Assembly (NCBI GenBank): GCA_048498995.1
Contig: JBEHWX010000014.1
Span: forward strand, 8,921 to 72,920
Direction: 5' to 3'
Length of the DNA: 64,000 nucleotides
From: Bacteroidota bacterium
GTDB taxonomy: Bacteria; Bacteroidota; Ignavibacteria; OLB7
The notes under the pieces are model-generated. The model saw nothing but the letters and a program-made list of their open reading frames with translations. It ran no database searches and had not been told where the DNA came from. Shown here piece by piece: positions 5,252 to 63,946 of this stretch (within the stretch, counting starts at the first letter, position 1; each line of letters opens with the position of its first letter). Position numbers and translations under genes: made by a program.

Positions 5252-10519
<5,268 letters not shown>

Positions 10520-36535: not shown

Positions 36536-37043
36536 TTGTTTCCCTTGCCCTCACGGGACTAGATTGCAACCGTTCGATTCGGCGTCCACCCGCGTGGTGG
36601 GCGCCGGGTCGCCACATCACCAGATATCCGCAGCGAATCCGTTGCACGAGCTTCATCAAGGGCGCCAGACGCGCCGCGACCGGGAATGAGATCCGGGGAG
36701 CAGTATTCGAGATCGATACGCGCCGGACATCCGAAGCGCCACCGCGCACACCGCGATAACAACAATTGAACAGCAGGCTCCGATCACGGAGCTCACGCCG
36801 GACGACGATGGCGCATGGGACCTGCGCGCATCGATCGTCGGATTTCCAACCGTTGGACGAGAGCGTTGGATTTCCCGTCGTCGGAATTTTCCGTGTCTGA
36901 GCTTCCGTCGCGCGGCATGATGCGCCTGCGGAGCAGGCTCACGCCCATGGCCGGGCAGGCATTATCGGAACGAGATTTCGGTTTCTCTCACACACATACA
37001 CCATCAGATCACCGACTGCAACCAGTACAAGGAGAACATTGCA

Positions 37044-38588
37044 ATGCCAGTCACACCAACATATCCGGGCGTCTACATCGAGGAGCTCCCGAGCGGCGTA
37101 CGGACCCTGATCGGCGTCGGCACGTCGATCACGGCCTTCGTCGGCCGCGCGCTCCGCGGCCCGGTCGATGAGCCGGTTCTGATCCACAGCTACGGCGATT
37201 TCGAGCGCACCTTCGGCGGCCTCTGGACCAAGAGCACCATGAGCTATCAGGTGCGCCAGTATTTCCTCAACGGCGGCTCGGACGCCATCATCGTCCGTAC
37301 CGTCGGCGCCTCGGGCACCCTCGCCGCCTTGTACGCGGCTCCGGCCCCCGCCGGAACCCTGACGATCTCCGCCGTCTCCCCCGGTGCCTGGGGCAACAGC
37401 GTGAAGATCAGCGTCGACAAAACCAATCTGATCGACATGGCCGACGCCGATCTGTTCCACCTGTATGTTACCGAGGTGGATCCGACCGACACGACCAAGA
37501 CCGTCAAGTACGAGCCCTTCTATAACGTCTCGGTCAATCCTGTTTCCCCCCGTTACATCGTGAAGGTCCTCGAGAACGAGTCGACGCTCGTGCGCGCCAC
37601 CGGAACGATCCCGGCCGACGCTCCGAATGCGCTTGCGTATACTTTCCTTGCCAGCGGCGCCGACGGTGCCGTGCTGACGGCGACCGAGGTGATCGGCAAC
37701 TCGGGGAACAAGACCGGCATGTACGCGCTCGAGAAGGCCGACCTGTTCAACATCCTCTGCCTGCCGCCGACGCTCAACGGCTCGGACGTTCTGGTCGACA
37801 TCGACACGGCCAGCTGGGGCGCCGCCCAGACCTATTGCAAGAAGCGTCGCGCCGTCGTGCTGATCGATCCGCCTGCGGCGTGGGACACGCTCGCCGAGGT
37901 GTACAACACGCCGGGCTTCACCAGCCTCAGCATCGCCGATGAGAACTCGGCCTTCTACTGGCCGTGGGTGGTGGTCTCCGATCCGCTGAAGGGGAACCAG
38001 CCGCTTTCGATCGCCCCGTGCGGCACGGTCGCCGGCGTGATTGCCCGCACCGATGCCGACCGCGGCATCTGGAAAGCTCCGGCCGGCATCGATGCCAACC
38101 TCGTCGGCGTTCAGTCGCTGGCCGTGAAGGTCACCGACGCCGAGAACGGCCAGCTCAACCCGCTCGGCGTGAACGTGCTCCGCACGCTGCCGGCCGCCGG
38201 CAACGTGGTCTGGGGCGCCCGCACCACCAAGGGTGCCGATCGCCTTGCCTCCGATTGGAAGTACCTGCCGGTGCGCCGTCTGGCCCTCTACATCGAGGAG
38301 AGCCTGTATCGCGGCACGCAGTGGGTCGTCTTCGAGCCGAACGACGAGTCGCTCTGGGCTCAGATCCGCCTGAACGTCGGTGCCTTCATGCACCAGCTCT
38401 TCCGCCAGGGTGCCTTCCAGGGCGCCAAGCCGTCCGAGTCCTACTTCGTCAAGTGCGACAAGGAGACCACCACGCAGAACGACATCAACCAGGGCGTGGT
38501 CAACGTCATCGTCGGCTTCGCGCCGCTGAAGCCGGCCGAGTTCGTCATCATCAAGCTCCAGCAGATCGCCGGGCAGATCGTCGCCTAA
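37044..38588 (+). CDS. Contractile tail sheath protein (eCIS/Afp2-4-like), paralogue S1
   Basis: An AGGAGA RBS precedes the N-terminus MPVTPTYPGVYIEELPSGVRTLIGVGTSITAFVG. The middle carries YALEKADLFNILCLPP. The C-terminus reads DWKYLPVRRLALYIEESLYRGTQWVVFEPNDE...FVKCDKETTTQNDINQGVVNVIVGFAPLKPAEFVIIKLQQIAGQIVA. Confidence 0.9.
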   Translation: MPVTPTYPGVYIEELPSGVRTLIGVGTSITAFVGRALRGPVDEPVLIHSYGDFERTFGGLWTKSTMSYQVRQYFLNGGSDAIIVRTVGASGTLAALYAAPAPAGTLTISAVSPGAWGNSVKISVDKTNLIDMADADLFHLYVTEVDPTDTTKTVKYEPFYNVSVNPVSPRYIVKVLENESTLVRATGTIPADAPNALAYTFLASGADGAVLTATEVIGNSGNKTGMYALEKADLFNILCLPPTLNGSDVLVDIDTASWGAAQTYCKKRRAVVLIDPPAAWDTLAEVYNTPGFTSLSIADENSAFYWPWVVVSDPLKGNQPLSIAPCGTVAGVIARTDADRGIWKAPAGIDANLVGVQSLAVKVTDAENGQLNPLGVNVLRTLPAAGNVVWGARTTKGADRLASDWKYLPVRRLALYIEESLYRGTQWVVFEPNDESLWAQIRLNVGAFMHQLFRQGAFQGAKPSESYFVKCDKETTTQNDINQGVVNVIVGFAPLKPAEFVIIKLQQIAGQIVA

Positions 38589-38616
38589 CCACCAACTCCA
38601 GCAAGGACAGTAAACA

Positions 38617-40215
38617 ATGCCTACTACACCAACGTATCCTGGCGTGTATATCCAGGAAATTCCGAGCGGCGTCCGGAGCATTTCGGGAGTCGGCACCTCG
38701 ATCACCGCTTTCATCGGCCTCGCGCTGCGCGGCCCGATCGACGAGCCGACGCTGATCCACGGCTACGGCGACTTCGAGCGGATCTTCGGCGGCCAGTGGA
38801 TCAACAGCGGCATGTCGTACTCGGTGAAGCACTACTTCCAGAACGGCGGCTCCGATGCCTTGATCGTGCGCATCATCCCGTCGAACGCCATCAAGGGGAA
38901 GACCGATCTCGACGCCGGCTCGAGCACGAAGGTGACGCTCGTGGCGGCCAACGAAGGGGCCTGGTACAAGAACATCTACGCGACGGTCGACTACAACGTG
39001 AACGTGTCGAACACCGATCCGACCTACGGCAAGGTGTTCAACCTGACGATCCGTGAGTATCTGACCAATCCGAACACCGACGCCAACGCGGTGCTGGTGC
39101 GCGAGGAAGTGATCCGGAATATCTCGGTGGACGCGACGGCGGCACGGTACATCGGCACGGTGCTGGCCAACGAGTCGTCGCTGGTGCGGTTCGATCCGGC
39201 CTCGACGGCGACGGTCAAGCCGTTGGCGGTGACCAATCAGGCGGTTGTCAGCGGCACTCCGGGGTCCGACGGCACGATTGCCAACGCGACGGTGACCGGC
39301 ACGAACTACACGACCGGCAAGCGGGGCCTGTACGCACTGGACAAGGCGGACTTGTTCAACATGCTGGTTCTGCCGCCGCTGACCCGTGACTCGGGGGGAG
39401 TCTGGACGGATGTTGCCAACAGCCTCGACGCGACCAACGGGGCGATCTGGAGCACGCTGATCTCGTACGCCAAGTCGCGCCGGGCCGTGGTGATCGTCGA
39501 TCCGGCCACCACCTGGACCAGCGTCTCCGCGGCGCAGTCCGGTGTTGCCGCGATGAGCCTCGCGCAGGAGAACGCGGCGATCTATTTCCCGCAGATCACC
39601 GTCGCCGACCCGCTTCGTGGCAACACGCTCGAGAATTTCGCGCCGTCGGGCGCGGTTGCCGGCGTGATCGCCCGCACCGACGCCGAGCGTGGCGTCTGGA
39701 AGGCTCCGGCCGGTCTCGACGCCCGTCTCGTCGGCGTCGCCAAGCTCTCGCAGTCGCTGACCGACGGCGAGAATGGCAGCCTGAATCCGCTCGGCATCAA
39801 CGTGCTCCGCACGCTTCCGGCGGCGGGCAACGTGGTCTGGGGCGCCCGTACCATGCGCGGTGATGATCGCCTGGCTTCCGACTGGAAGTACCTGCCGGTG
39901 CGCCGTCTGGCCCTCTACATCGAGGAGAGCCTGTATCGCGGCACGCAGTGGGTCGTCTTCGAGCCGAATGACGAGCCGCTCTGGGGACAGATTCGTCTGA
40001 ATGTGGGTGCGTTCATGCACCAGCTCTTCCGCCAGGGTGCCTTCCAGGGCGCCAAGCCGTCCGAGTCCTACTTCGTCAAGTGCGACAAGGAGACCACCAC
40101 GCAGAACGACATCAACCAGGGCGTGGTCAACATCATCGTCGGGTTCGCTCCGTTGAAGCCGGCCGAGTTCGTCTTCATCAAGCTCCAGCAGATGGCTGGT
40201 CAGATCGTCTCGTAA
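38617..40215 (+). CDS. Contractile tail sheath protein, paralogue S2
   Basis: MPTTPTYPGVYIQEIPSGVRSISGVGTSITAFIG; the 3' ~370 nt are ~95% identical to S1; central region divergent. Confidence 0.9.
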   Translation: MPTTPTYPGVYIQEIPSGVRSISGVGTSITAFIGLALRGPIDEPTLIHGYGDFERIFGGQWINSGMSYSVKHYFQNGGSDALIVRIIPSNAIKGKTDLDAGSSTKVTLVAANEGAWYKNIYATVDYNVNVSNTDPTYGKVFNLTIREYLTNPNTDANAVLVREEVIRNISVDATAARYIGTVLANESSLVRFDPASTATVKPLAVTNQAVVSGTPGSDGTIANATVTGTNYTTGKRGLYALDKADLFNMLVLPPLTRDSGGVWTDVANSLDATNGAIWSTLISYAKSRRAVVIVDPATTWTSVSAAQSGVAAMSLAQENAAIYFPQITVADPLRGNTLENFAPSGAVAGVIARTDAERGVWKAPAGLDARLVGVAKLSQSLTDGENGSLNPLGINVLRTLPAAGNVVWGARTMRGDDRLASDWKYLPVRRLALYIEESLYRGTQWVVFEPNDEPLWGQIRLNVGAFMHQLFRQGAFQGAKPSESYFVKCDKETTTQNDINQGVVNIIVGFAPLKPAEFVFIKLQQMAGQIVS

Positions 40216-40505
40216 TCCCCTTGGGAGCGGCCCCGACGTTTCGTCGCCGCCAGCTCCCTCCCGGCAGGGGATTGCTCGGCTCGAAGTCTGGGCGGGGTGT
40301 CCTGCACATCCCGCCCGGCTCGCGCCGGCAAGAGCGCAACAGCCCCAACGGCCGCGCGCTTCGCTCCCGGGAAGCCGCCACGGAAGTTTTCCCGGAAGTC
40401 GTCGTCATACAGCTTCGGCGCGGAATGCCGGACTGATAGCGTCGCAATGCCCGTAGTCGTTCGTTACCGATCCAGCAGCATTCGCCACCAAGCAACATCA
40501 CTGCA

Positions 40506-42116
40506 ATGCCCCTTCCGACATCATATCCCGGCGTATACGTTCAGGAATTGCCCAGCCAGTCCCGCGCGATCGCTCCGGTGGGAGCCACCATCACCGCGTT
40601 CATCGGACAGGCGATGCGGGGCGAGATGAACAAGCCGACGCTGATCAACGGCTTCGGCGATTACGAGCGGATCTTCGGCGGCCTCAATTATCTGAGCACG
40701 ATGAGCTACGCCGTCCGCGATTATTTCCTCAACGGTGGGTCGAACGCGGCGATCGTGCGTGTCGGCACGACGGCCGGATATACCTGGCGCAAGGGGCTTA
40801 CACGTCTGCCGACGTCGGATGCCCTGCAGTATCTCTTCCTGGAAGCGAAGTCCGAGGGAGCGTGGGTCAACAAGTGCATCGTCAGCGTCAGTTGGACTAC
40901 CTCCAATCCGAGCGATACCAACCTGTTTTCGCTCATCATCAAGGAATATTCCTATACCCATGCCGACTACGCCGATGTGGTCAACGACCCGGTGGTCGGG
41001 CAGGAAACTATCTACAATCTTTCGATCGATCCGAGCTCTCCCCGGTACGTCGTCAACGTGCTCGAGCAGGAGTGCGAGCGTCTGCGGGTTCAACCCGGAT
41101 CGACCGTTCCGACCGTGCGCCCGACGGCGTCGTCGTATCTGAATTTCAACCTCCGAACCGGTGTCGATGGCGTCGCGGCCGACGTGGATTATCTCGGCGA
41201 TTCCGTGCTGAAGAAAGGGATCTACGCGCTCGACCTCCTCGATCGTTTCGATGTTCTCTGCATTCCGCCGATCACGCGCGTGACGACCGGCGGCACCGGC
41301 AATGACGTCGGGCTTTCCACGTGGCAGGCGGCGCTGGCCTACTGCAAGCAGAGGCGCGCCATGCTCGTGGTCGATCCTCCGGCGTCGTGGACCAGCGTAT
41401 CGGCGGTTACCAACGCCACGACCGGCATCGACGGATCGTCCGGATCGAGCTACAAAAGTCTGCGCGATGAGAACGCGCTGATCACGTTCCCGCGCGTCTA
41501 CGCATCTGATCCGCTCAGCGCCAACCGCCTCGATCTCTTTGCCGCGTGCGGGGCCGTCGCCGGCGTCATCGCCGGCACCGATGGCAAGCGCGGCATCTGG
41601 AAGGCTCCGGCCGGACTCGATGCGCGCCTCGTCGGCATCTCCACCCCCGCGGTCAGGATGACCGAAGCGGAGATCGGCACGCTCAACCCGCTCGGCGTGA
41701 ACGCCATCAGGACCATGCCGGGGGCGGGCGTGGTGCTGTGGGGCTCGCGCACGCTGGAGGGAGCCGATCGCCTTGCCTCCGATTGGAAGTACCTGCCGGT
41801 GCGCCGTCTGGCCCTCTACATCGAGGAGAGCCTGTATCGCGGCACGCAGTGGGCCGTCTTCGAGCCGAACGACGAGCCGCTCTGGGGGCAGATCCGTCTG
41901 AACGTTGGAGCGTTCATGCATCAGCTCTTCCGCCAGGGTGCGTTCCAGGGGGCCAAGCCGAGCGAGGCCTATTTCGTCAAATGCGACCAGGAGACCACCA
42001 CGCAGAACGACATCAACCAGGGGGTGGTCAACGTTATCGTCGGCTTCGCGCCGTTGAAGCCGGCCGAGTTCGTCATTATCAAGCTCCAGCAGATCGCCGG
42101 GCAGATACTATCGTAA
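40506..42116 (+). CDS. Contractile tail sheath protein, paralogue S3
   Basis: MPLPTSYPGVYVQELPSQSRAIAPVGATITAFIG; conserved C-terminal block identical to S1/S2 family; it is preceded by a ~290-bp spacer. Confidence 0.9.
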   Translation: MPLPTSYPGVYVQELPSQSRAIAPVGATITAFIGQAMRGEMNKPTLINGFGDYERIFGGLNYLSTMSYAVRDYFLNGGSNAAIVRVGTTAGYTWRKGLTRLPTSDALQYLFLEAKSEGAWVNKCIVSVSWTTSNPSDTNLFSLIIKEYSYTHADYADVVNDPVVGQETIYNLSIDPSSPRYVVNVLEQECERLRVQPGSTVPTVRPTASSYLNFNLRTGVDGVAADVDYLGDSVLKKGIYALDLLDRFDVLCIPPITRVTTGGTGNDVGLSTWQAALAYCKQRRAMLVVDPPASWTSVSAVTNATTGIDGSSGSSYKSLRDENALITFPRVYASDPLSANRLDLFAACGAVAGVIAGTDGKRGIWKAPAGLDARLVGISTPAVRMTEAEIGTLNPLGVNAIRTMPGAGVVLWGSRTLEGADRLASDWKYLPVRRLALYIEESLYRGTQWAVFEPNDEPLWGQIRLNVGAFMHQLFRQGAFQGAKPSEAYFVKCDQETTTQNDINQGVVNVIVGFAPLKPAEFVIIKLQQIAGQILS

Positions 42117-42272
42117 CACTCCGGTATCGGCGCGGACTCGTTATTCCGAGTCCGGATCAAATGCAGTGCCCCGAGCCGAACGGGCCCGCGATTACGACTT
42201 GAATATGACATATCGTCTCGTTATCCAACGAGCACCACGCAACCATTCACGGCAAGACTCAAGCAAGATCCC

Positions 42273-51408: not shown

Positions 51409-52143
51409 ATGCGCACGATGACCACACGGGACCTCCTGTGGGTCTGGGAGCGCGGTTGCCGGCAGCATCCGGTCGACAGGGCACTGACGATTCTCATGGC
51501 CGGATATCCGGAATCGACATGGGAGGAGCTGGTGTCGCTGAGCATTGGGCAGCGGGATTCACGCCTGCTGAGCGTCAGGGAACGTACCTTCGGCACCCAT
51601 CTGGAAAGCCACTGCGAATGCCGTCACTGTCAGGAGCGTCTCGAATTCTCCGTCGACTCCACGGCATTGCGCGACGTCGGCGCGCCGATGAGGAGCCTGC
51701 CCGAATACTCGTTCGTTCACGACGAGATCGAGGTGTGTTTCCGGCTGCCCAATAGCTGGGACCTTGCCGCCATCGCAACCCTGAGTGATCCGCTCGAGGC
51801 CAGGTCGCTCCTCGTGGAGCGCTGCGTGCTACAGGTCACCCGGCAGGGAGCCGTGCTCCCCGCCGGGGACTTGTCCGAGGAGGTCGTTCAGGAGTTGGGA
51901 TCGCAACTCGCCGAACAGGATCCGCAGTCGGAGGTCGTACTCGATCTGGCCTGCCCCACGTGCGGCCGGAACAATTCGGTTCTCTTCGACATCGCCACGT
52001 ATCTCTGGCTCGAAATCGATGCCTGCGCGAAGCGCCTTCTCCGCGAAGTCCACACGCTTGCCCGTGCCTACGCCTGGCGTGAATCCGACATCCTGGAGCT
52101 GACGCCGGTCCGCAGGCAATTCTATCTGGCAATGGTGCATTGA
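51409..52143 (+). CDS. Hypothetical eCIS-associated protein with putative Zn-ribbon (CxxC...CxxC)
   Basis: The 244-aa product contains HCECRHCQ and CPTCGRNNS. It sits 12 nt after the tube gene, and its stop overlaps the next start (TGATG). Confidence 0.4.
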   Translation: MRTMTTRDLLWVWERGCRQHPVDRALTILMAGYPESTWEELVSLSIGQRDSRLLSVRERTFGTHLESHCECRHCQERLEFSVDSTALRDVGAPMRSLPEYSFVHDEIEVCFRLPNSWDLAAIATLSDPLEARSLLVERCVLQVTRQGAVLPAGDLSEEVVQELGSQLAEQDPQSEVVLDLACPTCGRNNSVLFDIATYLWLEIDACAKRLLREVHTLARAYAWRESDILELTPVRRQFYLAMVH

Positions 52144-53681
52144 TGGCTGATTTCTTCTCCCGGCTCGCCGAACGGACGCTCAGCGTCGCCCCGGTGGCCG
52201 AGCCCACGGTCGGATCCCTCTTCTCGTCGACGAATCTCTTTTCCGAAGGCTCGGCCGGCCTGGCCCAGGCTCCGGAGCAGGGATTCATCGACGAGCCCGC
52301 GGGGGCTCTCGATGAACCGATCGAACGGGATGATCCTCCGGCGGCCGATCCGCGGCCGCGCCAACCCGCCACGTCTCGTCCGGCCGATGCCGCGATCGGA
52401 GACCGGCGTGGAGCGGCGCCGGATATACAGCCGGATATGCCGGCTCACCGGCCCGCCGCTCCCTCGGTGAGTGCCGGCGACCCGGATGCATCCGCGAGCT
52501 CGATCGCCAGGGGGAATATCGATGCCGCGAACGATCGCGACCGCGCCTCGGACGCGAATGACGGCGGATACGCGACGCTTCTTCCGGAGCGTCCGCTCGC
52601 CGGCATCGACGTCGCGGGCGTGGAGGCTCCCTTCACCGCCGGCCCGCCGGCCGGGGAGGTGGAGGAGCATGAGAACGACGAAAGGACGACGACCACGAAT
52701 GAATCGAATCACGATGACGATGTAACGACGCGGCATTCCGCGCTGGGTGCGGCAGAGGACGCGACACACCGGCGGCCGGCTACGCCGGAAGCACCTGGGA
52801 GCGACGTCGAACGGACGCTGCTCCCGAGAAAGCCCACCACAGCGAGGACGCCCTGGTGGTCCTCCCCGAACGATGCGGCACCACCGGATTCCGGTGAGCC
52901 GCGCGGATCGGCGCACGCCGATCCGGATGCGTCGGGGGGGATCGCCAGTAGGCGTGACCAGCCGGATGACGATCCGCGTCGCGATGTCGCTCACGATGTC
53001 GCGCGCGACGCGGGACGTGGCGATGCGCCGTCGCTCCTTCCGGCTACCCCCGCCGGCGATCGTGCCGGGATCGGAAGCTCCCACGACGATGCCCCGCGGG
53101 GACGCTCCGAGGAGCGGAGCTCCGCGGCCGACGAGGGAAGCGTGGGGAATGGGAGATCCGCCCGTGGCGGAGACGCTTCCCGCGCCATCCGCGTGGAGCC
53201 ATCGTCCGAGCGGATGATGCGGTATGAAGGCGAGGAGCCCGGCGGCAGGGGCGCGACATCCGATCGTGGGGAGAGCTCGGGTACGCGATCGGCGAGGGGG
53301 AGCCAGCCGGCGCGCGGCGCGCGCATTCATCAGGTCGAGGCACGCGCCGATCGCGGTACGACGGAATCGGACGGGGGATCTCCCGCGAGGAGATCATCGG
53401 AAGCGGCACGCCAGCTGGTTCCGACACCACCGGGACAGCTTACGCCGATCCGCTCCACGGAGCGGGCCGAGGGGGAGCGATCCCGTAGAGATCATCACGC
53501 TCAGGCACAGCCGCAACCGCAGGCGCCGTCGCCGATCAAGGTGTCGATCGGCCGCATCGAGGTCAAAGCGGTGATGCAGACACCACCGGCGCAGCAGACG
53601 CGCCAGGCTCCCCAGCAGGGGTCGAGCCCGATCCTCACATTGGACAACTACTTGCAACAGCGGAATGGGAGAAGTCGATGA
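52143..53681 (+). CDS. Intrinsically disordered Asp/Arg/Ser/Ala/Pro-rich protein (candidate tape-measure analogue or cargo), hypothetical
   Basis: The 513-aa product is low-complexity throughout. A short structured-looking C-terminus reads KVSIGRIEVKAVMQTPP...LTLDNYLQQRNG. It is translationally coupled to both neighbours. Confidence 0.4.
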   Translation: MADFFSRLAERTLSVAPVAEPTVGSLFSSTNLFSEGSAGLAQAPEQGFIDEPAGALDEPIERDDPPAADPRPRQPATSRPADAAIGDRRGAAPDIQPDMPAHRPAAPSVSAGDPDASASSIARGNIDAANDRDRASDANDGGYATLLPERPLAGIDVAGVEAPFTAGPPAGEVEEHENDERTTTTNESNHDDDVTTRHSALGAAEDATHRRPATPEAPGSDVERTLLPRKPTTARTPWWSSPNDAAPPDSGEPRGSAHADPDASGGIASRRDQPDDDPRRDVAHDVARDAGRGDAPSLLPATPAGDRAGIGSSHDDAPRGRSEERSSAADEGSVGNGRSARGGDASRAIRVEPSSERMMRYEGEEPGGRGATSDRGESSGTRSARGSQPARGARIHQVEARADRGTTESDGGSPARRSSEAARQLVPTPPGQLTPIRSTERAEGERSRRDHHAQAQPQPQAPSPIKVSIGRIEVKAVMQTPPAQQTRQAPQQGSSPILTLDNYLQQRNGRSR

Positions 53682-54934
53682 GTAATTACCTGGCAATTGC
53701 TACCGTCACGGCATGCCTGAAACAATTGCTGCAACCCGCGGCCACGTCATTCAACGGATCGCCGGTCACGGTGCTCCGGCCGGATCTGATCGCCGGCAGC
53801 GGCAATTCGGCCGGTGTCAACGTCTACATGTACCAGGTGATGCCCAATACCGCCTGGCGCAATGAAGACCTTCCGGCGCGCCGCTCCGACGGTCAATTGA
53901 TCACGCGTCCGCGCGTGGCGCTCGATCTGTACTATATCATCAGCTGCTATGGTCCGGACAACGAGTTCGCGCCGCAGCGCATGCTCGGCAATGTCGTCAA
54001 GATCATGCACGAGACGCCGGTGCTCACCCGCGATTTCGTGCAGGATACAGTCAGCAGCACCAGCTATGTAAGCGGCTCCGATCTGATGAACGAGATCGAG
54101 CTGGTCAAATTCACGCCGACGGCGATGTCGACCGAGGAGATATCGAAGCTCTGGGCGGCGTTTCAGACCACGTACCTCGTTTCGGTGGTCTATCACGGCA
54201 CCGTGGTGCTGATCGACAGCAGCATGGACCCCACGCCGGCGCTCCCGGTTCGCAGCAGAAACCTCTACGTCGTTCCGTTCAATCAGCCGATCATCGAGCG
54301 TGTCCTCTCCGCCGATGGCCTCGGCGTGCCGATCGACGCATCGAGCACCGTGCTCATCAAGGGGAAGGGGCTTCGGGGGGATCCCACCGCGTCCACCAAG
54401 GTCCGTGTCGCCGGCACCGAGGTGGTGCCCGATCAGCTCAACGATCAGCAGATCACGGTGGACTTCACTTCGGTGCTGTTGGCCGGCTACCTGCGCGCCG
54501 GCGTGCAGGGCATTCAGGTGGTGCAGCCCCGCCTGATCGGAACCCCGGCGGTCGACCACACCGGCGTCGAGTCGAACGTGGTGCCGTTCGTGCTTCATCC
54601 GAAGATCACCGCCCTTAGCGCCACCAATTACTCCGGAACGGCGATGTCGCGCACCTGCGATATCACCCTCACGATCTCCCCCGTCGTCGGAAAGACCCAG
54701 CGCGTGATTCTCTTCCTGAACGAGATGACCGATACCGATCCGAAGTTCTACAGCTTCGTGGTACCGGACCGCGGCTCCGATTCCAGCACGATCACCGTCC
54801 ACGTCACCGGCGTGAAGGGAGCCTGGTATATAGTCCGCGTTCAGGTCGACGGCGCGCAGAGCCTCCTCGAGGAGGACACCGATCCGTTGAATACCACGCA
54901 CACGATGCCGAAGCTCGAGATTCTCGCGAGCTGA
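53678..54934 (+). CDS. Tail terminator/cap protein (Afp16/Pvc16-like, DUF4255) - tentative
   Basis: The N-terminus MSNYLAIATVTACLKQLLQP resembles eCIS cap proteins. The product is 418 aa with an Ig-like C-terminal region, and the gene has an ATGA overlap. Confidence 0.45.
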   Translation: MSNYLAIATVTACLKQLLQPAATSFNGSPVTVLRPDLIAGSGNSAGVNVYMYQVMPNTAWRNEDLPARRSDGQLITRPRVALDLYYIISCYGPDNEFAPQRMLGNVVKIMHETPVLTRDFVQDTVSSTSYVSGSDLMNEIELVKFTPTAMSTEEISKLWAAFQTTYLVSVVYHGTVVLIDSSMDPTPALPVRSRNLYVVPFNQPIIERVLSADGLGVPIDASSTVLIKGKGLRGDPTASTKVRVAGTEVVPDQLNDQQITVDFTSVLLAGYLRAGVQGIQVVQPRLIGTPAVDHTGVESNVVPFVLHPKITALSATNYSGTAMSRTCDITLTISPVVGKTQRVILFLNEMTDTDPKFYSFVVPDRGSDSSTITVHVTGVKGAWYIVRVQVDGAQSLLEEDTDPLNTTHTMPKLEILAS

Positions 54935-55230
54935 TCCGCCGATCGCCTCCCGTCCCGCACCTCCATCGGGTCCCATCAGGACTTGACGGGGAGCGGGGGG
55001 AGGACAGGGATCGTGGCTGTCGAATCCGATGCCAGTCGATCATGAAATGGACCCGGCGGACCGGAGACGATGTCGGCGAGCGCGCCACGCGGCCGCGTTC
55101 CTCGATCGCTCCGGTCCGTCCGCTCCGTCGATGATCGTCGGCATGGGCGGCGGGTCGGCATGGAAACGAGCAACCTTCACGTCGCGCGCGCGGGCGGCGC
55201 CATCATCATCTCTTCACTCATCATCCTGGC

Positions 55231-57200
<1,970 letters not shown>

Positions 57201-57210
<10 letters not shown>

Positions 57211-57569
57211 ACGGACTGGCGGGCGATCGCGCCGAAAGCCGCGGCGCGGTCGACACGCCCGCTCCGGATGCTCAGGTCCATCCGTCGAATCCGGCGCCGG
57301 CCGCCGCCTCCGATGCGTCGCGGCCGATCGAGCTCCACATCGACGAGCTGGTGCTGGAGGGATTCTCCGGCGTCGATCGCGATCTGGTGGGAGACGCGCT
57401 ACGTCGTGAGCTCACCAGGCTCCTCTCCTCCGGCTACGCGCCGGACTCCCTGAAGGAGGCGGGGGAGATGGCGCGGATCAACGGCGGCAGCTTCATCGTC
57501 CGCAAGGGAATGCATCCCGAAGAGATAGGGAAACAGATCGCGAGGTCGATTTTCTGGGGAATGAGATGA
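57201..57569 (+). CDS. Hypothetical small protein downstream of the ATPase
   Basis: The 122-aa ORF overlaps the ATPase stop by 10 nt and has no motifs. Confidence 0.35.
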
Positions 57570-58747
57570 GAGAATGTTTCTCTGCGGAGGGGCCGGAGAA
57601 GAGGGGACGCAACATTTTCGAGATCGATGATGGGAGCATCGCGAGCAATATGTCTCTCGACGACGAACGGGATTGTGTTGGCCGTACGAAGTAGATCCCA
57701 GCGGGCTAACGAAAGCAACCATCAGCGACGATACCGCCTGAATGTGTGAGAAGCAGGAAGCGGGCGCTGGCGCGGCTGAGGACGCGGTTTGCGGGAATCT
57801 ACGGGAAGCCCCGAACAGCTCCCACGCGAGCATGGGCCTTGCGAAACGGAACCGGAATATTCCCATGCCATCGACCTCGGAATTGCCGAAGCATGCGGTC
57901 CATGCCACAACAGCGACAATGTGGTGATCCTCGCATGGTCGAGCGAGCGCCGCAAGGTTGGCCTGATGGACCGTTCTTCCACGGAGCTCCCGCGGTGACG
58001 GCAGCATGAGAACAGGTCCGGCTTCACCCTGATTTCGAGTCACCGCCGCGTCCATCGATGTAACCATCGGCAGCGCCGGTACCGTCCGGAGCGCTGGGAA
58101 ATTTCTGTCGGCGTGGTCCCGACGCGCGTGGACTATTCCGTGAATCTGGGATATGGAGAGGCTCATCGGCGATGTCCGGGCCGCCGAATATTCCGACCCA
58201 TCGTCGGTGGCCGAGGAGAATCTGGAGCAGGCCGACGTTGAGCTTGACATGGAGTGCCGCGATGCGTATACTTGTCGACGACACATCCACGACGCCGCGG
58301 AATCACTCGAAATGATCGATCGCAACGCAGAATGCGCGCACGCGCCGCTGTTGTCCGGAGTGGACCGAGGGCCACGACCGACACCCGACAGTGCCTGCGA
58401 ACGGCGCCCGGAGCTCATCGAGCTCGATCGTCCACACCAGGGCGCATGTGTCAGACCACAACGCACGAATTCACTCGATGATGTCGCATTGACGGCTCAG
58501 CGACGACGCGCCGCCGCCAACCTCCGGAGCTTCGTCACGCAACGGGCCTTCGCGAGGAACGCGAGGTAGGGATCGCGAGCCCGCCTCGATCGCAACGAAG
58601 CGCGCGCCGGAGAACGCCGGAGATGCCGGCGCCGATGCGGCCGATCATCCCTCTTGCCGGTTCACGCACCGGTCACGGCACGGAGCGCGCGTGCCGGCAC
58701 CAGAACGAGTTTCGCTCAGAACTACCACACGTGGGAGTCTTCACACC

Positions 58748-59395
58748 ATGTCCAGTTTTCCAGGTTCACCACAACTGATGAAGGGGGCTCTCGTCGGCAT
58801 CGATGCAACGAGCCAGAAGGCGAGCACCATCAAGTTTCAATACAACCCGATGGAGCTCACCCGATCGCTCCAGGCACAGACGGCGACCGAAGGGGGAAGT
58901 CGCGCCGAGATCCTTCGACTGAAGGGGGCTCCGGTCGAGACGATCAGCCTCAAAATCGATATCGACGCCACCGATCAGCTCGAGGAGGCGGGGGGAACCG
59001 CGACCACGCTCGGCATCCATCCGCAGCTGGCCGCGCTCGAGCTGCTGGTCTATCCCAGCACGACGCGAGTGATCACCAACCAGAAGCTTCTGGCCGTCGG
59101 CACGATCGAAGTGATTCCGTACGCGGCGCCGTTCACCCTCTTCATCTGGGGAAAGAGCCGCGTGCTGCCGGTCCGCCTGTCCGACTTCAGCATCACCGAG
59201 CAGTATTTCGATTCCAACCTCAACCCGATCCGCGCCGAGGTCTCGCTCAATCTGCGGGTGCTCTCCTACAACGATCTTCCGTTCTCGCATCCCGGGAACG
59301 CGCTGTTCATCGCGCATCAGGTCGCAAAGGAAGCCTTCGCCGCCAGCGCGGGCTCCGGAACGGTCTCCACGCCGGCATCACTCTTATTCAAGTAA
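58748..59395 (+). CDS. Tube-like / tube-initiator-like baseplate protein (Afp5/Afp7-like) - tentative
   Basis: The 215-aa product begins MSSFPGSPQLMKGALVGIDATSQKASTIKFQYNPMELTRSL. Its position immediately before the LysM/tail-X, hub and spike genes is consistent with a baseplate protein. Confidence 0.4.
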   Translation: MSSFPGSPQLMKGALVGIDATSQKASTIKFQYNPMELTRSLQAQTATEGGSRAEILRLKGAPVETISLKIDIDATDQLEEAGGTATTLGIHPQLAALELLVYPSTTRVITNQKLLAVGTIEVIPYAAPFTLFIWGKSRVLPVRLSDFSITEQYFDSNLNPIRAEVSLNLRVLSYNDLPFSHPGNALFIAHQVAKEAFAASAGSGTVSTPASLLFK

Positions 59396-59412
59396 GCAGG
59401 GAGGCATTGTTC

Positions 59413-59721
59413 ATGTTCGATTCAACCAGTCGCTACGCTTCGATCGAAATCGCCTCGCGCAACGTGACCGGGAGTGATGGCGTCTTCCGCGAAGTCCGCT
59501 ACGTCCGCCGACGTTTCATTCCGTCGGCCAAGAATTATTCGGTCCTCCAGGAGCACAACGTGATCCTCGGCGATCGTCTCGACAACGTGACTGCCGATTA
59601 TTTCGGCGACCCGACCCAGTTCTGGATGATCTGCGACGGCAACGAGGCGATGAATCCGTTCGATCTCGTCTCCCGTCCCGGAACGACGCTCGAGATCCCG
59701 GTTCCTCAATTCCAGGTTTGA
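59413..59721 (+). CDS. LysM-like / phage tail protein X domain protein
   Basis: An AGGGAGG RBS precedes VLQEHNVILGDRLDNVTADYFGDPTQFWMICDGNEAMNPFDL, which matches the tail-X/LysM consensus (GD.L..IA..YYGD...W.I..AN...NP..L). Confidence 0.5.
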   Translation: MFDSTSRYASIEIASRNVTGSDGVFREVRYVRRRFIPSAKNYSVLQEHNVILGDRLDNVTADYFGDPTQFWMICDGNEAMNPFDLVSRPGTTLEIPVPQFQV

Positions 59722-59723
59722 CA

Positions 59724-60881
59724 ATGAACTTAACAGGTATACAACTGACGCTCATGGTCGGGCCCACGATCGCGGTGCCGGCGCCGGCCGTGCTCTCCGA
59801 GTCGATCGAGAGCGTGGAGGTGACGCATGCCGACGGCCGCGAGCGATCGGGATTTCAGATTACGTTCCAGGTCGGCCGGAACGGCCCGGCCGATGTGATC
59901 GATTTCGTGCTGATGTCGAACGCGATGCTGAAAGTATTCAACCGCGTCGTGCTCGTGGTCACCTTCGGCGCCAAGCCGCAGGTGCTCTTCGACGGGATCA
60001 TCACCAATCAGCAGCTCACCCCAGGCTCGGCGCCGGGCGAGTCGAAGCTGACGATCACCGGCGAGGACGTCAGCATCATGATGGATCGCAAGGAGATGAA
60101 CGAGGAGCATCCGGCCCAGCCCGAGGCGATCATCGCCTTGAAGCTGATCGCCAAGTACGCGCAGTACGGGATGATCCCGAAGGTGATTCCGCCGGTGAGC
60201 TTCGACGTGCCGATTCCGATCGAGCGGATCCCGGTGCAGCGCGCCACCGATCTGCAGTATATCAAGCAGATGGCCGAGCGGTTCAATTACACGTTCTACG
60301 TCACGCCGGGGCCGGTGCCGCTGACCAACACCGCCTATTGGGGGCCACGCATCAGGGTGGGGGTGCCGCAGCCGGCGCTCTCGGTCAACCTCGGATCGGA
60401 GACGAACGTGGAGTCGATCAACTTCGCGTACGATGGCCTGAAGCCACGCATCATCAAGGGAAAATTCCAGGATCGACAGACCAACAAGAAGCTGCCGGTG
60501 CTCGGCCTGATCAGCACGATCATCCCGATCGTGCCCTTCCCCGCGCTGCTGGTCAATTATCCGAACGCTGAGATGAAGCTCCCCGATCCCTCCGAGGATC
60601 TCGGCGGCAAGAACACGCTGCAGGCCACCGCGCGCGCCATCGCGAAGGTGAACGAATCGGCCGAGGAAGTGGTCTCCGCCAGCGGCGTGCTCGATGCCGC
60701 CCGCTACGGGAATATCCTTCATCCGCGCGGGCTGGTCGGTCTGCGTGGCGCCGGCTTCAACAACGATGGTCTGTACTATGTCAAGAGCGTCACGCACTCG
60801 ATCAAGCGTGGCGAGTACAAACAGCGATTCACCCTGACGCGTGAAGGGTACGGGTCGATTACACCAGTGGTGAGGCCATGA
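59724..60881 (+). CDS. Baseplate hub protein (phage late control gene D / gp27-like)
   Basis: About 385 aa, the same size as P2 gpD. It sits directly upstream of and translationally coupled to the gpV spike. A TTG at 59718 is an alternative start. Confidence 0.5.
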   Translation: MNLTGIQLTLMVGPTIAVPAPAVLSESIESVEVTHADGRERSGFQITFQVGRNGPADVIDFVLMSNAMLKVFNRVVLVVTFGAKPQVLFDGIITNQQLTPGSAPGESKLTITGEDVSIMMDRKEMNEEHPAQPEAIIALKLIAKYAQYGMIPKVIPPVSFDVPIPIERIPVQRATDLQYIKQMAERFNYTFYVTPGPVPLTNTAYWGPRIRVGVPQPALSVNLGSETNVESINFAYDGLKPRIIKGKFQDRQTNKKLPVLGLISTIIPIVPFPALLVNYPNAEMKLPDPSEDLGGKNTLQATARAIAKVNESAEEVVSASGVLDAARYGNILHPRGLVGLRGAGFNNDGLYYVKSVTHSIKRGEYKQRFTLTREGYGSITPVVRP

Positions 60882-61435
60882 GCACAGCAACCAGTTCATC
60901 AAACGGCGCCGCCTCGCAGTTCGGCGGCTCGGCCATGGGGCCCAGATATTTCGGCAAGTATCGCGGCACGGTCGCCAGCAACCTCGATCCGTTGCAGCTC
61001 GGGCGCATCCAGGTTTCCGTTCCCGCCGTTCTCGGCGACGGACGGCTGAGCTGGGCGCTCCCCTGCATGCCCTACTCCGGCAAGAACGAGGGCTTCTTCG
61101 CGCTTCCGCCGGTCGGCACGAATATCTGGGTCGAGTTCGAGGGGGGCGATCCCGACAGCCCGATCTGGGCCGGCTGCTTCTGGGATGTCGGAGAGGTTCC
61201 CGCTTCTCCCGCGATCCAGCAGATGAAGGTGATCCGCACCGAATCCATCACGATGACCATCAGCGATGTTCCGGGTGCCGGCGGATTCACCCTCGAAGTC
61301 GGGCCTCCGGCCGTTGCCACGCCGCTGAAGATGACCTTCGATTCCTCCGGCATCGAGTTGAAGAACGGCGCGGCGAGCGTGAAGCTCACCCCCGCGAGCG
61401 TGTCGGTCAACAACGGCGCGCTGGAGGTGATCTGA
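60878..61435 (+). CDS. Baseplate spike protein (gpV / gp5 / VgrG-N OB-fold family)
   Basis: The sequence YRGTVASNLDPLQLGRIQVSVPAVLGDGRLSWALPCMPYSGKNEGFFALPPVGTNIWVEFEGGDPDSPIWAGCFW is the classic Phage_base_V signature. Confidence 0.8.
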   Translation: MSTATSSSNGAASQFGGSAMGPRYFGKYRGTVASNLDPLQLGRIQVSVPAVLGDGRLSWALPCMPYSGKNEGFFALPPVGTNIWVEFEGGDPDSPIWAGCFWDVGEVPASPAIQQMKVIRTESITMTISDVPGAGGFTLEVGPPAVATPLKMTFDSSGIELKNGAASVKLTPASVSVNNGALEVI

Positions 61436-61767
61436 TGCCGGGCATGCTCGTTCACGTCGGCGCCACGATCCTCTGTCCGCATGCCGGACAGGCCTCGGTG
61501 GTCTCCTCCAATACACGGGTCATGGTCAGCAATCAGTTCGTCGCCCTCGTCGACGACAATTATCCGATCGCCGGCTGTCCGTTCGTGCTCGGCAACACGC
61601 CACATCCGTGCGTGAAGATTCAATGGCTCGTGCCGGCAACACGGGTCTTCGTCAACAAGAAGCCGGTGATCCTCCAGTCGAGCTCCGGGCTTTGCCTGGC
61701 CGCCGATCAGGCGCCGCAGGGGCCGCCGAACATCGTGATGACGCAGCTTCGCGTGAAGGGGATGTGA
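61435..61767 (+). CDS. PAAR-like spike tip protein (DUF4280 type)
   Basis: The 110-aa product reads GATILCPHAGQASVV...CPFVLGNTPHPCVKIQW. It follows gpV with a 1-nt overlap. Confidence 0.65.
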   Translation: MPGMLVHVGATILCPHAGQASVVSSNTRVMVSNQFVALVDDNYPIAGCPFVLGNTPHPCVKIQWLVPATRVFVNKKPVILQSSSGLCLAADQAPQGPPNIVMTQLRVKGM

Positions 61768-61814
61768 GCCCACGCCGCGCGGTTCAACACCACAGCAAAC
61801 GTCGAGACGAGACA

Positions 61815-63086
61815 ATGCAGAGATTTCAGATCCGCCATCGGGTGGAGCACCTGCTCCGTCCGCACATGACGATTCTCGGGCACCGGTTCCCGGCGTTTCA
61901 CCTCTGCGGGTACGCCGGGCTTCTTCTGATGGCCGCCACCATGCTGGCCCTGACAGATCTGCGTGGGCTTTCGCTCGCGATCACGGCCGGGCTTCTGCCT
62001 CTCGCGGCCGTGATCTTTCTCGGCTCGGCGATGCTTTCCAAGATTCTGACCGGCGTGGAGCAGATCGTCTACTATCGCATCCAGATCGCCATCGTTGCCG
62101 TCGCGGCGCTTCTGCTCCGGTTGATCGGCGCTCCGGTGGGAGCCTATCTGGATCTGTTGATACTGGGGATCGGCGCCTTCACCGCCGCCGGAAGGATCGG
62201 ATGCCTGATGGTGGGATGCTGCCACGGCACGCCGAGCCGGAACGGCATCTGCTATCACGACCGTCATGCACGCGAGGGATTTCCGCGCGCGCTGGTCGCG
62301 GTGCCGCTGATTCCGGTGCAGCTCGTGGAATCTCTCTGGGTGGCGCTCGTCGTTGCCGTGGGAATCGCCATGCTGCTCGCCGGCAGCGGAGCCACGGGCT
62401 CCGTGGTCGCATGGTATACGATCGCGTATGGGGTCGGGAGGTATTTCCTCGAATTCCGTCGGGGCGATCCGGAGCGTCCGTATCTCCTCGGCATCTCCGA
62501 GGCGCAGTGGACATCGCTGGCGACGATCGGAGTCGTCATCGCGGCGGAACAGATGGGGCTTCTCGCGCCGATCGCGTGGCATGCGCTGCTGTTCGGTCTG
62601 CTTCTGCTCCTCACGGCCGGCGTCATTGTCGGCAGGGCCACGTCGGACGCCGATTTCCGGTTCCGTCAGCCGAGGCACATCATCGAGCTCGCCCGCGCCA
62701 TCCGCGCGATCGATGCCGAGGCGCTGCTCGTCGAGGCGGGAGGGGAGCGGAGGAGCGGCGGAATTCCGGCGCGAACCACGTCCGAGGGAATGACGATCTC
62801 CACCAGCATCACCAGCGATCCCTGGCGACGAACCTATCACTATGCGTTCTCGAGCATCGGTGGGGCGATTGCTCCGCGTGACGCACAAGAGCTTGCGCGG
62901 CTGATACAGCTTCTTTCCGGCCATCCGGGATATGTGGAAGTGATCGAGGGGAGAGGAGGGATTCATCATCTCCTGATCCAGTCGGCGCGCGCCACACCCG
63001 AGCGTGAGGTCGAGGAGGGATTTTCCGTGATATCCGCAGAGCAGGGAGTATCACGGATGTCGGGAATGTCGGTCGCGCGCCGATAA
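61815..63086 (+). CDS. Polytopic membrane protein with Lgt (prolipoprotein diacylglyceryl transferase)-like signature plus ~140-aa soluble C-terminal domain
   Basis: It has ≥6 predicted TM helices. The sequence GRIGCLMVGCCHG resembles Lgt G-R-I-G-N-F-I-N-G-E. The sequence YGVGRYFLEFRRGDPERP matches the Lgt Y..G..RF..EF.R.PD signature. It is embedded between the PAAR and gp25 genes. Confidence 0.45.
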   Translation: MQRFQIRHRVEHLLRPHMTILGHRFPAFHLCGYAGLLLMAATMLALTDLRGLSLAITAGLLPLAAVIFLGSAMLSKILTGVEQIVYYRIQIAIVAVAALLLRLIGAPVGAYLDLLILGIGAFTAAGRIGCLMVGCCHGTPSRNGICYHDRHAREGFPRALVAVPLIPVQLVESLWVALVVAVGIAMLLAGSGATGSVVAWYTIAYGVGRYFLEFRRGDPERPYLLGISEAQWTSLATIGVVIAAEQMGLLAPIAWHALLFGLLLLLTAGVIVGRATSDADFRFRQPRHIIELARAIRAIDAEALLVEAGGERRSGGIPARTTSEGMTISTSITSDPWRRTYHYAFSSIGGAIAPRDAQELARLIQLLSGHPGYVEVIEGRGGIHHLLIQSARATPEREVEEGFSVISAEQGVSRMSGMSVARR

Positions 63087-63589
63087 CCGTGATCGAGGCT
63101 GTCCGCGCGCCGTCGCGCGGTCCGGAAGGAAGCGGCGTGCCCGGAGATGGCATGTCTTGCGGCTGCGCGCCTGGATTTTTCGCGGCTCGCCGTGGACGGC
63201 GTTGGCCATGTGCATGGAGAACGCCGGGCTTCGAGGAGCCGGTATAAAAAAATGCGCCGCATCCGGTTCACCACAACGACGGCCGCCGTATATTCGTGCC
63301 CATTCACGGCGCCACGCGCTTCACGCAATCGTTCGCGCCTCGAATTTTCAGCACCTCATCCCGATCGTCGGGTTTCCCGGGCGCCACGCCCGCCAGACTC
63401 CACCGCCGCCTCCTGACCACGGCGCGCACATGAGATATTCGATGCCGGCCCTTCACCGCCGGCGTGGGGAATAGCGGAGGGGAACGTCGGTCCAGTTGAA
63501 TGCGAGCATCAATGTCGCGACCGATGTCGGCAGCTCGCCGTTGAACGCCACAACCGAGTCAACTTTTCATACAACATTCGGGTACTCCG

Positions 63590-63946
63590 ATGCAAATCGA
63601 TTATCCATTCAAGCTGGACGGATTGGGGCGCACCACCCTCACCGACCAGAATGATCACATACGTGACATGATTGAACAGGTGCTTTTCACGACGCCCGGG
63701 GAGCGTGTGAATCGGCCGACCTTCGGCTGTGGGCTTCTGCAGCTCGTCTTCGGACCGAACAGCGATGAGCTCGCCACCACCACGCAGTTTCTCGTGCAGG
63801 GTGCGTTGCAGCAGTGGCTCGGTGACATCATCCAGCTTCAGCGCGTGGAGGTCAGCAGCCGTGACTCCCTGATCGAGGTGGTCGTGGCGTACGTGGTGCG
63901 CCGCACCCAGCAGAGCCAGGTCGCGAAAATCACACGGGAGGTCTGA
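63590..63946 (+). CDS. Baseplate wedge protein gp25/GPW family (Afp9-like)
   Basis: The sequence IRDMIEQVLFTTPGERVNRPTFGCGLLQLVFGPNSDE is the canonical GPW_gp25 motif. The product is 118 aa. Confidence 0.8.
   Translation: MQIDYPFKLDGLGRTTLTDQNDHIRDMIEQVLFTTPGERVNRPTFGCGLLQLVFGPNSDELATTTQFLVQGALQQWLGDIIQLQRVEVSSRDSLIEVVVAYVVRRTQQSQVAKITREV

Follow-up and report, generated by a model that had tools for sequence, protein, structure and literature searches.

What is a relative of the prolipoprotein diacylglyceryl transferase Lgt doing among the structural genes of a contractile injection system (CIS)? The question is posed by a 64,000-nucleotide stretch of a Bacteroidota genome (GTDB lineage Ignavibacteria, OLB7; contig JBEHWX010000014.1, positions 8,921 to 72,920 of the forward strand), referred to here in its entirety as the window, in which a plus-strand gene at 61815..63086 encodes an Lgt-like membrane protein associated with an extracellular CIS (eCIS). 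A sequence-only reading of the window had picked out this gene and had offered either a membrane-anchored particle or a lipid-modifying enzyme co-opted into baseplate biology as an explanation of its position. The picture that emerges from the translation, Pfam, an AlphaFold2 model, Foldseek and the homologues is that the protein belongs to a large, hitherto undescribed, CIS-dedicated subfamily with the Lgt fold, which suggests an undescribed lipid-linked step in the building or loading of CIS machines.

The open reading frame (ORF) comprises 424 codons including the stop, and its ATG at 61815 agrees with independent gene calls in an identical contig (GCA_048498215.1) and in 98%-identical Logan contigs. 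Codon differences from a 98%-identical homologue, of which 17 are synonymous and 10 non-synonymous, are consistent with purifying selection; the antisense ORF at 61707-62969 was set aside as the usual artefact of high-GC DNA, the homologue conservation lying on the plus strand. The AlphaFold2 model (predicted local distance difference test score, pLDDT, 89; predicted template-modelling score 0.84) contains, by DSSP and hydropathy, eight membrane helices at residues 27-49, 54-79, 86-103, 108-133, 168-188, 196-215, 229-246 and 254-276, followed by a folded soluble domain. In this regard the sequence-only reading described the protein well: its length of 424 residues has to be corrected to 423, while its ‘at least six’ transmembrane (TM) helices become eight, its C-terminal extension is a folded domain in the model, and its two Lgt-like motifs are indeed present, the one a modified Lgt signature, GRIGCLMVGCCHG, at residues 126-138 (62190..62228, +) and the other a second Lgt-type motif, YGVGRYFLEFRRGDPER, at residues 205-221 (62427..62477, +), both placed by hhalign (the former against E. 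coli Lgt and an Lgt profile).

The relationship to Lgt is seen in both sequence and fold. The Pfam LGT profile (PF01790) matches at E=2e-19 (70.3 bits, where 24.9 is the cut-off), aligning only profile positions 91-235 of 240. When the model is compared with the Protein Data Bank (PDB) using Foldseek, E. coli Lgt (5AZB) is both the top and the only significant match (E=4.7e-4, probability 1.00, template-modelling score 0.59 normalised to the target, 273 aligned columns of 284). Similarity of this order is far beyond chance, and the link to Lgt that had been drawn from two short motifs therefore stands, on similarity that reaches beyond them. The relationship is a distant one, since neither a PDB sequence search with the protein nor a PDB search with the family profile retrieves Lgt, and since the hhalign profile–profile alignment with Lgt spans the end of TM3 through TM6 only. 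Alignment with an enterobacterial Lgt profile could not be extended into TM1-3, and the N-terminal third has no sequence alignment to Lgt by Pfam or hhalign; a CGY motif in TM1 may match Y26 of Lgt.

Within the aligned region the hhalign pairs of window protein and E. coli Lgt are D113 with D129, R127 with R143, C130 with N146, C135 with E151 and G138 with G154 around the signature; P167, Q169 and E172 with P197, Q199 and E202; and Y205 with Y235, R209 with R239, E213 with E243 and R216 with R246 in and near the second motif. In other words, equivalents of R143, R239, Y235, E243, D129 and G154 are kept, and each of these is invariant or at least 90% conserved in the family. In E. coli Lgt it is the periplasmic end of TM4 that bears the signature motif, and R143 is essential and binds phosphatidylglycerol (PG) (PMC4728403). 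As read from the alignment, then, the phospholipid-binding arginine pair and much of the hydrogen-bond network are kept, with two of the signature residues swapped.

More than 200 homologues of ca 400 residues share ca 40% identity with the protein over ca 90% of its length, the C-terminal domain included, and some of these are annotated ‘prolipoprotein diacylglyceryl transferase (family protein)’. A HMMER scan of 1.84 billion cluster representatives (50% identity) with the family profile gives 909 clusters at E<=1e-30 and ca 9,500 at E<=0.001; because there are only ca 9,500 at the latter threshold, canonical Lgt proteins are for the most part not retrieved. Conservation was counted on 120 representatives of at most 50% pairwise identity, in which C130, C135, G138, Y147, P167, G195, Y205, R209, R216 and Q231 are invariant and R127, D113, C136, H137, H151 and E213 are at least 90% conserved, all of these residues being present in the window protein. 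The two cysteines standing in for N146 and E151 thus rank with the best-conserved residues of the family, and the pattern as a whole, judged from the alignment, looks enzyme-like. A similarity of the segment GCLMVGCCHG..GVC to the 3Fe-4S loop of glutamate synthase was non-significant (E ca 0.5) and is not relied on here.

From 185,579 GTDB species genomes, one per species, candidate stretches yielded 130 confirmed relatives, the best 80 of which were analysed. The family spans more than 10 phyla, and the taxa of these 80 include Acidobacteriota, Chloroflexota, Desulfobacterota, Myxococcota, Bacteroidota, Planctomycetota, Cyanobacteriota, Betaproteobacteria and Spirochaetota. Hallmark eCIS genes, either DUF4157 or structural, lie within 10 kb of the Lgt-like gene in 76 of the 80 species-representative loci, and two of the four loci that lack them are contigs of less than 3 kb. 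Matches to the DUF4157/eCIS_core hidden Markov model occur in 71 of the 80 loci (a sample was confirmed with Pfam), and structural CIS genes, recognised with the proteins of the window, in 27. The DUF4157 ORFs are usually on the same strand as the Lgt-like gene, within ca 700 bp of it and often overlapping it, and the usual order of genes is AAA+ ATPase, a small gene, DUF4157 cargo genes, sometimes accompanied by immunity-like ones, plus the Lgt-like gene, and then an Afp5-like tube gene. The Pfam-annotated contexts of the relatives agree with this association. Therefore, what becomes evident is that the Lgt-like family is a dedicated accessory component of extracellular and cytoplasmic CIS loci.

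The association extends to Actinomycetota, by way of a distant member on the plasmid of Rhodococcus opacus strain 9 (NZ_CP095404.2, 644891-661514; gene at 7944-9200 of that stretch, L090). This protein has 34% identity over about half of the query, keeps the GCxxxGCCHG motif and carries the RefSeq label ‘prolipoprotein diacylglyceryl transferase family protein’. Its gene flanks, and is transcribed divergently from, a CIS cluster (DUF4255, two sheath genes, tube), with a DUF4157 gene followed by a HEAT-repeat gene, and two BTAD regulators, nearby.

Set against this background, the position of the gene in the window is of a minority type. As the sequence-only reading had it, the gene lies between PAAR-like and gp25 genes, as Pfam scans bear out (with the DUF4280 match of the former below cut-off); its further description of the protein as one encoded inside the baseplate operon holds for the window and fails as a rule for the family, being peculiar to a sub-lineage, whereas in most relatives the gene is placed in a DUF4157 array. 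The order PAAR-like, Lgt-like, gp25 was found in the window, in L005/L089 and in the contig of P0005. Since P0005 has the same order and is only 43% identical in protein sequence, the arrangement appears to be old and stable.

The orientation of the protein in the membrane bears directly on its possible function. Over a 40-sequence alignment, lysine plus arginine (K+R) amounts to 15.4 on the side of the signature motif, counted as the N-terminus, loops 2-3, 4-5 and 6-7 and the segment after TM8, and to 1.5 on the opposite side, counted as the four short loops. In E. coli Lgt the bias is reversed, with ca 5 on the signature side versus ca 13 on the other, the active site of that enzyme being periplasmic and its cytoplasmic face positively charged (PMC4728403). 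Moreover, the membrane core of the window protein (residues 27-276; 61893..62642, +; from DSSP of the model, hydropathy and the Foldseek match to 5AZB) has one helix more than Lgt. Helices 1-7 make up the Lgt fold, and the Pfam alignment stops at residue 242, within helix 7 (residues 229-246) and ahead of helix 8; an SxxQWxS sequence in helix 7 resembles, when compared by eye with no alignment, the SMGQxxS at the start of TM7 of Lgt. From the end of the Pfam alignment in helix 7 and the position of SxxQWxS, helix 8 (residues 254-276) is taken to be extra, and because it is extra, the C-terminal domain is expected to share the side of the membrane on which the N-terminus and the signature motifs lie.

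The ends of the protein are in keeping with this topology. The K/R-rich N-terminal segment (residues 1-26; 61815..61892, +), predicted to be cytoplasmic from charge counts and from the N-terminal extensions of relatives, has five K+R versus one aspartate or glutamate in the window protein, the family mean being 5.1 K+R; in relatives the charged extensions run from 50 to 250 residues and are devoid of signal peptides. A CxxCxxCC domain (PF03692), a module of ca 200 residues that is putatively Zn/Fe-chelating, is fused to the N-terminus of the Lgt-like protein in P0125 and to its C-terminus in P0121, P0231, P0003, P0011 and P0061, and may instead be a separate gene nearby, although it is present in only 6 of 87 loci. 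Fusion of this module at either end suggests a metal or redox partner, and suggests that the two termini share one side of the membrane. In P0228 it is a DUF4157 domain that is joined to the C-terminus. Taken together, the charge bias, the extra helix 8 and the fusions to cytoplasmic-type domains indicate that the orientation is probably inverted with respect to Lgt, with the catalytic face, both termini and the C-terminal domain in the cytoplasm. Sites of the CxxCxxCC module were recorded at L066 9242-11203, L081 9221-11179, L043 1811-3655, L028 6365-7096 and L015 13930-14409.

What of the parts of the protein that face the putative cytoplasmic side? The loop equivalent to the head of Lgt (ca residues 139-167; 62229..62315, +) is short, predicted to be cytoplasmic from alignments and charge analysis, and contains Y147 and P167, which are invariant, and H151, which is nearly so. 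Beyond helix 8 follows a soluble, family-specific alpha/beta domain (residues 278-395; 62646..62999, +), which gives a pLDDT of 90 when modelled alone with AlphaFold2, in the order helix, three strands, helix, two strands; in the model of the whole protein its folded part covers ca residues 281-390. Its conserved residues are H288, E291, T322, G325, S329, S346 and H385, several of them at least 90% conserved among the 120 representatives. The domain has no Pfam match, and its fold finds no significant counterpart in the PDB (best E=0.015, template-modelling score at most 0.38) or in BFVD; a profile search with it returns only parts or fragments of the Lgt-like family itself. Type III secretion effector chaperones (ExsC, SycH, SicP) recur among the weak fold matches and are a lead only, and PDB profile matches to designed helical repeats were rejected as spurious. 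The protein ends in a disordered, poorly conserved tail (residues 396-423; 63000..63083, +), according to the alignment and to a pLDDT below 50 for residues 399-423. PHROG and PADLOC give no match for the protein; in phage collections there are partial matches only, to the Lgt-homologous core (query residues 111-238), in unannotated records. Rfam and tRNA scans find nothing near the gene.

How might such a protein act? Either explanation offered by the sequence-only reading, an anchored particle or a co-opted lipid-modifying enzyme, may be right. The reading that we tentatively prefer, at somewhat short of an even chance, is that the protein faces the cytoplasm and serves as a lipid transferase or tether for CIS cargo or the spike. 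In this proposal the retained arginine pair would bind a membrane phospholipid at the inner leaflet, and the bound phospholipid would be used to lipidate, or to tether covalently or transiently, a cytoplasmic component of the CIS; the Cys/His cluster would provide a catalytic thiol (nucleophile) or a metal site, and the C-terminal domain a docking module. The cleft would then face the compartment in which CIS particles are assembled and receive their cargo. In most lineages the likeliest targets would be the DUF4157 cargo proteins whose genes surround the Lgt-like gene, whereas in the lineage of the window the target may be the PAAR-like spike tip or the baseplate, encoded adjacently, the PAAR-like protein being the candidate partner in this sub-lineage. 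A narrower form of the proposal, in which the family attaches a diacylglyceryl or related lipid to the DUF4157 cargo or the spike tip before loading, through a Cys/His (possibly metal) centre, is in our estimation unlikely.

Several observations weigh against a lipid transferase or tether of this kind. The Lgt signature GRxGNFxNxExxG reads GRIGCLMVGCCHG in the window protein, such that N146 and E151 give way to the invariant C130 and C135 of GCxxxGCCHG. In E. coli Lgt, E151 binds PG and the E151A and E151Q variants are inactive, and H103 is essential (PMC4728403); near the position of H103 the family has YYHH and the window protein YYRIQ. Thus the catalytic set of Lgt is conserved in part, the six equivalents named above (R143, R239, Y235, E243, D129, G154) being kept and N146 and E151 replaced, and with N146 and E151 absent, canonical Lgt chemistry may be lost and the fold retained as a mere scaffold. 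Neither is a DUF4157/eCIS_core domain found in the 64-kb window, even with the HMMER filters off, nor do the gene calls for the next 10 kb of the identical contig include one; as the window lacks it, DUF4157 cargo could be the partner throughout the family only if encoded at another place. A possible acceptor motif, [QR]RxCx(1-2)C, upstream of the DUF4157 domain is present in only 63 of 169 neighbouring DUF4157 ORFs and 38 of 72 loci, figures which have no control set beside them, and is a lead only. The one protein in which the two partners are joined, P0228 (L088 591-2438; 615 residues), where the Lgt-like protein runs into a DUF4157/eCIS_core domain at residues 512-588, could be a Rosetta-stone fusion or, being known only once and from a contig of 4 kb, a product of misassembly or of a frameshift. 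Lastly, the positive-inside rule and domain fusions are indirect guides to topology.

The loss of N146 and E151 is also what would be expected of a protein with no catalytic role at all, and a serious, if rather unlikely, alternative is a non-catalytic membrane adaptor in which the Lgt fold is an anchor and the C-terminal domain recruits baseplate, spike, AAA+ ATPase or cargo to the inner membrane face, in the manner of CisA or of thylakoid CIS, allowing firing, loading or release. An integral membrane protein conserved across CIS loci, with a soluble C-terminal domain on the predicted cytoplasmic side, would suit such a role, as would the placing of the gene between those of spike tip and baseplate wedge in the window, in an order kept at 43% identity; in addition, a member of the family flanks an actinobacterial CIS cluster, and actinobacterial CIS need a membrane adaptor (PMC12237407). 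However, the polar residues of the cleft (R127, R209, R216, Y205, D113 and E213) are kept together with the Cys/His cluster over more than 10 phyla, and since these stay invariant the pattern is that of an active or ligand-binding site and not of a passive anchor. Moreover, CisA is bitopic and not known to be related, and in most loci it is the cargo module, not the baseplate module, that houses the gene. Were the protein instead a paralogue of Lgt that faces the periplasm, where it would lipidate a dedicated exported protein (a lipoprotein related to immunity, release or a receptor), the Lgt fold and the phospholipid-binding arginines would be accounted for, and the Cys-rich loop could be disulfide-bonded; Lgt paralogues are present in some bacteria. 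This is nevertheless very improbable, given that the charge bias is the opposite (15.4 vs 1.5 K+R), that N146 and E151 are missing here too, and that N-terminal extensions of up to ca 250 residues, with CxxCxxCC and no signal peptide, would need to be exported. A partial survey of neighbours, in which signal peptides and lipoboxes were not screened, revealed no conserved partner besides DUF4157.

A role in lysis or release, by consuming or remodelling phosphatidylglycerol or otherwise perturbing the membrane, or in self-protection from membrane-active cargo, might be sought in the view that eCIS particles are freed by lysis of the producer (PMC8213781). No holin or endolysin turned up in the Pfam scans of the window, in which no search was aimed at either, and in relatives the gene sits among toxin and immunity-like (HEAT-repeat) genes. 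Yet the Lgt-like protein retains ca 35-45% identity across phyla while the adjacent toxin domains vary, which disfavours a toxin-specific immunity role, and with no holin similarity and no PADLOC or PHROG match this is a long shot. There remains the ordinary housekeeping lgt, the gene of EC 2.5.1.145, located by chance in an eCIS cluster, which the sequence-only reading had itself raised as the finding that would undo the link. The Pfam LGT match and the annotations of homologues are what such a gene would give, but the protein falls far below every NCBIfam lgt equivalog cut-off (39.2 vs 118.9 for TIGR00544, 63.7 vs 334 for NF000778, others lower), has replaced N146 and E151, and has eight helices and an extra domain; eCIS genes are beside the family in 76 of 80 loci; ca 130 relatives were confirmed from 185,579 species genomes, whereas Lgt is near-universal; and the family profile mostly misses canonical Lgt (ca 9,500 clusters at E<=0.001). 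It is very unlikely, therefore, that this protein is a housekeeping Lgt, and the chance placement of one is effectively refuted. The scanned ORFs of the 64-kb window include no canonical lgt.

The locus around the gene is that of an eCIS, as established by Pfam scans, and runs on the plus strand from a regulator to the spike genes (35210..61767). The regulator, with helix-turn-helix and GerE/LuxR-type domains (35210-36535, +), is directly upstream of the first sheath gene; GerE-domain regulators adjoining eCIS operons were reported by Geller et al. Next come eight tandem sheath paralogues (37044-50555, +), each with Phage_sheath_1 and Phage_sheath_1C domains, which are 504-561 residues long and only 38-61% identical to one another. 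Afp and PVC loci have three sheath genes, and the eight found here suggest an unusually composite sheath or alternative sheath subunits. After the sheaths the order is a gp19-type tube gene, a T4_baseplate-like gene, a 513-residue gene without a Pfam match, Pvc16_N, the AAA+ ATPase (55231-57210), a 122-residue gene, an ORF-poor gap of 1.1 kb, CIS_tube (Afp5-like), a small gp53-like gene and an Afp7-like gene. The spike is represented by a VgrG/Afp8-like gene (60878..61435, +; Phage_base_V, E=2.4e-21) and by a PAAR-like/DUF4280 spike-tip gene of 110 residues (61435..61767, +; DUF4280 E=0.003, below cut-off), the latter ending 47 bp upstream of the Lgt-like gene. Downstream lies the gp25-like baseplate wedge gene (63590..63946, +; GPW_gp25, E=3.3e-17) and, further on in the identical contig, three large baseplate-type proteins and a DUF6519 protein are encoded.

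Two gaps in this locus can be described. The ORF-poor one (57570-58690, 1.1 kb), flanked by the small gene that follows the AAA+ ATPase and by the Afp5-like tube gene, falls exactly where relatives hold the Lgt-like gene with a DUF4157 cargo array; within it are a near-consensus sigma-70-like site at 58244-58272 (11/12 matches) and no detectable DUF4157 remnant. The other (63087-63589, 0.5 kb) is non-coding and lies between the Lgt-like gene and gp25; L005 has it too, as does, at ca 0.3 kb, the contig of P0005. It has a weak promoter-like site at 63267-63294 and no Rfam match. Elsewhere in the window, an ORF at 12337-18027 (+) encodes 1,896 residues and is strongly coding by its GC content at third codon positions (0.91), with no Pfam match; genes for a beta-propeller/YtkA-like protein, SCO1/SenC and cytochrome c lie 3' of it. 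At 5252-10669 (-) there is a hybrid signalling protein of 1,805 residues, composed of CheB methylesterase, CheR methyltransferase, PAS domains, histidine kinase and receiver.

In the loci of relatives the cargo ORFs beside the Lgt-like gene (for example L003 7515-9452, L044 7693-9966 and L001 7719-10010) are of two architectures. In one, LQRKCxCG...CxxCKKK comes ahead of a DUF4157 domain close to the N-terminus. In the other, the domain lies at ca residues 280-350, behind YEQEADRVAE, QRxCxxCE and a conserved region without a Pfam match, CPYLDYWFxYY...RYAPE...TGxITGVPE. Between the DUF4157 toxin gene and the Lgt-like gene there recurs a HEAT-repeat-like gene of ca 200 residues (LASDAPGxYEAAxxWF...HWRILLLL; L018 9289-9918, L028 9260-9868, L040 9400-10008, L054 9447-10016, L072 9370-9993), the product of which is probably an immunity or accessory protein. 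The small genes at this position were considered as a conserved third partner and discarded as such, being heterogeneous, HEAT-repeat-like or other.

No paper that connects contractile injection systems with Lgt or diacylglyceryl transferase came to light in full-text literature searches. Pfam LGT has an odds ratio of 0.35 in the enrichment table of Geller et al., with two occurrences in eCIS operons, and is not flagged; the family is missed by enrichment at the level of Pfam because housekeeping Lgt swamps the signal. For the study of how eCIS cargo is selected, processed and loaded, and of whether particles contact the membrane of the producer, the family offers a concrete handle, in that it is a widespread, conserved, enzyme-like membrane protein set in the cargo module. 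Were the narrower proposal, attachment of a diacylglyceryl or related lipid before loading, to be correct, some CIS would deliver lipidated payloads or assemble on the inner leaflet, and no earlier case of Lgt-type lipidation on the cytoplasmic face of a bacterial membrane would exist. The protein would also be a rare case of an enzyme fold with flipped membrane orientation and a rebuilt catalytic motif, and as such it would matter for the mechanism of Lgt and for the use of Lgt as an antibiotic target. The family has carriers in culture (Mitsuaria sp. PDC51, Roseateles chitinivorans P36, Variovorax ureilyticus P51 and Calothrix sp. NIES-4105), and therefore the predictions are directly testable.

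How, finally, does the protein compare with known systems? Its genetic partners are the DUF4157 (eCIS_core, PF13699) cargo proteins, with which it is found in 71 of 80 loci and in one case joined in a single protein. Such cargo (for example Cgo1 and Cgo2 of AlgoCIS) is soluble and is loaded into the tube lumen by means of a disordered N-terminal signal and the AAA+ ATPase (bioRxiv 10.64898/2026.05.27.728243). DUF4157 itself is a highly eCIS-specific marker of cargo and toxins, the role of which is called unknown and which is dispensable for loading, and no membrane partner of DUF4157 cargo is mentioned in either source (PMC8213781; bioRxiv 10.64898/2026.05.27.728243). In role, the protein comes nearest to a CIS membrane adaptor such as CisA, that of the cytoplasmic CIS of Streptomyces coelicolor. 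CisA is bitopic with a cytoplasmic N-terminus (PMC12237407); like CisA, the window protein is a membrane protein encoded in a CIS cluster, the cytoplasmic part of which could contact the particle and which is not expected in the free particle. Unlike CisA, which has no Lgt fold, it is polytopic, with eight TM helices, an Lgt fold and an enzyme-like cleft; no kinship of the two in sequence or fold is known, although they were not set directly against each other.

With the thylakoid-anchored CIS of Anabaena and the membrane complexes of type VI secretion systems the shared concept is that of a contractile machine coupled to the membrane of its producer. Those machines are anchored by extended baseplate proteins or by TssJLM and are not known to use an Lgt-like enzyme for the purpose; anchoring of the particle considered here is hypothetical. 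It is with E. coli Lgt (5AZB/5AZC, PF01790) that the likeness is greatest, in the overall membrane fold, in the sequence homology from the end of TM3 to TM7, and in the conserved equivalents of D129, R143, G154, P197/Q199/E202, Y235, R239, E243 and R246. Unlike Lgt, the window protein has GCxxxGCCHG in its signature, a head loop of ca 34 residues versus ca 50, an added eighth TM helix and C-terminal domain of ca 115 residues, and a predicted orientation that is the opposite, and its family is found in CIS loci and not in a housekeeping context.

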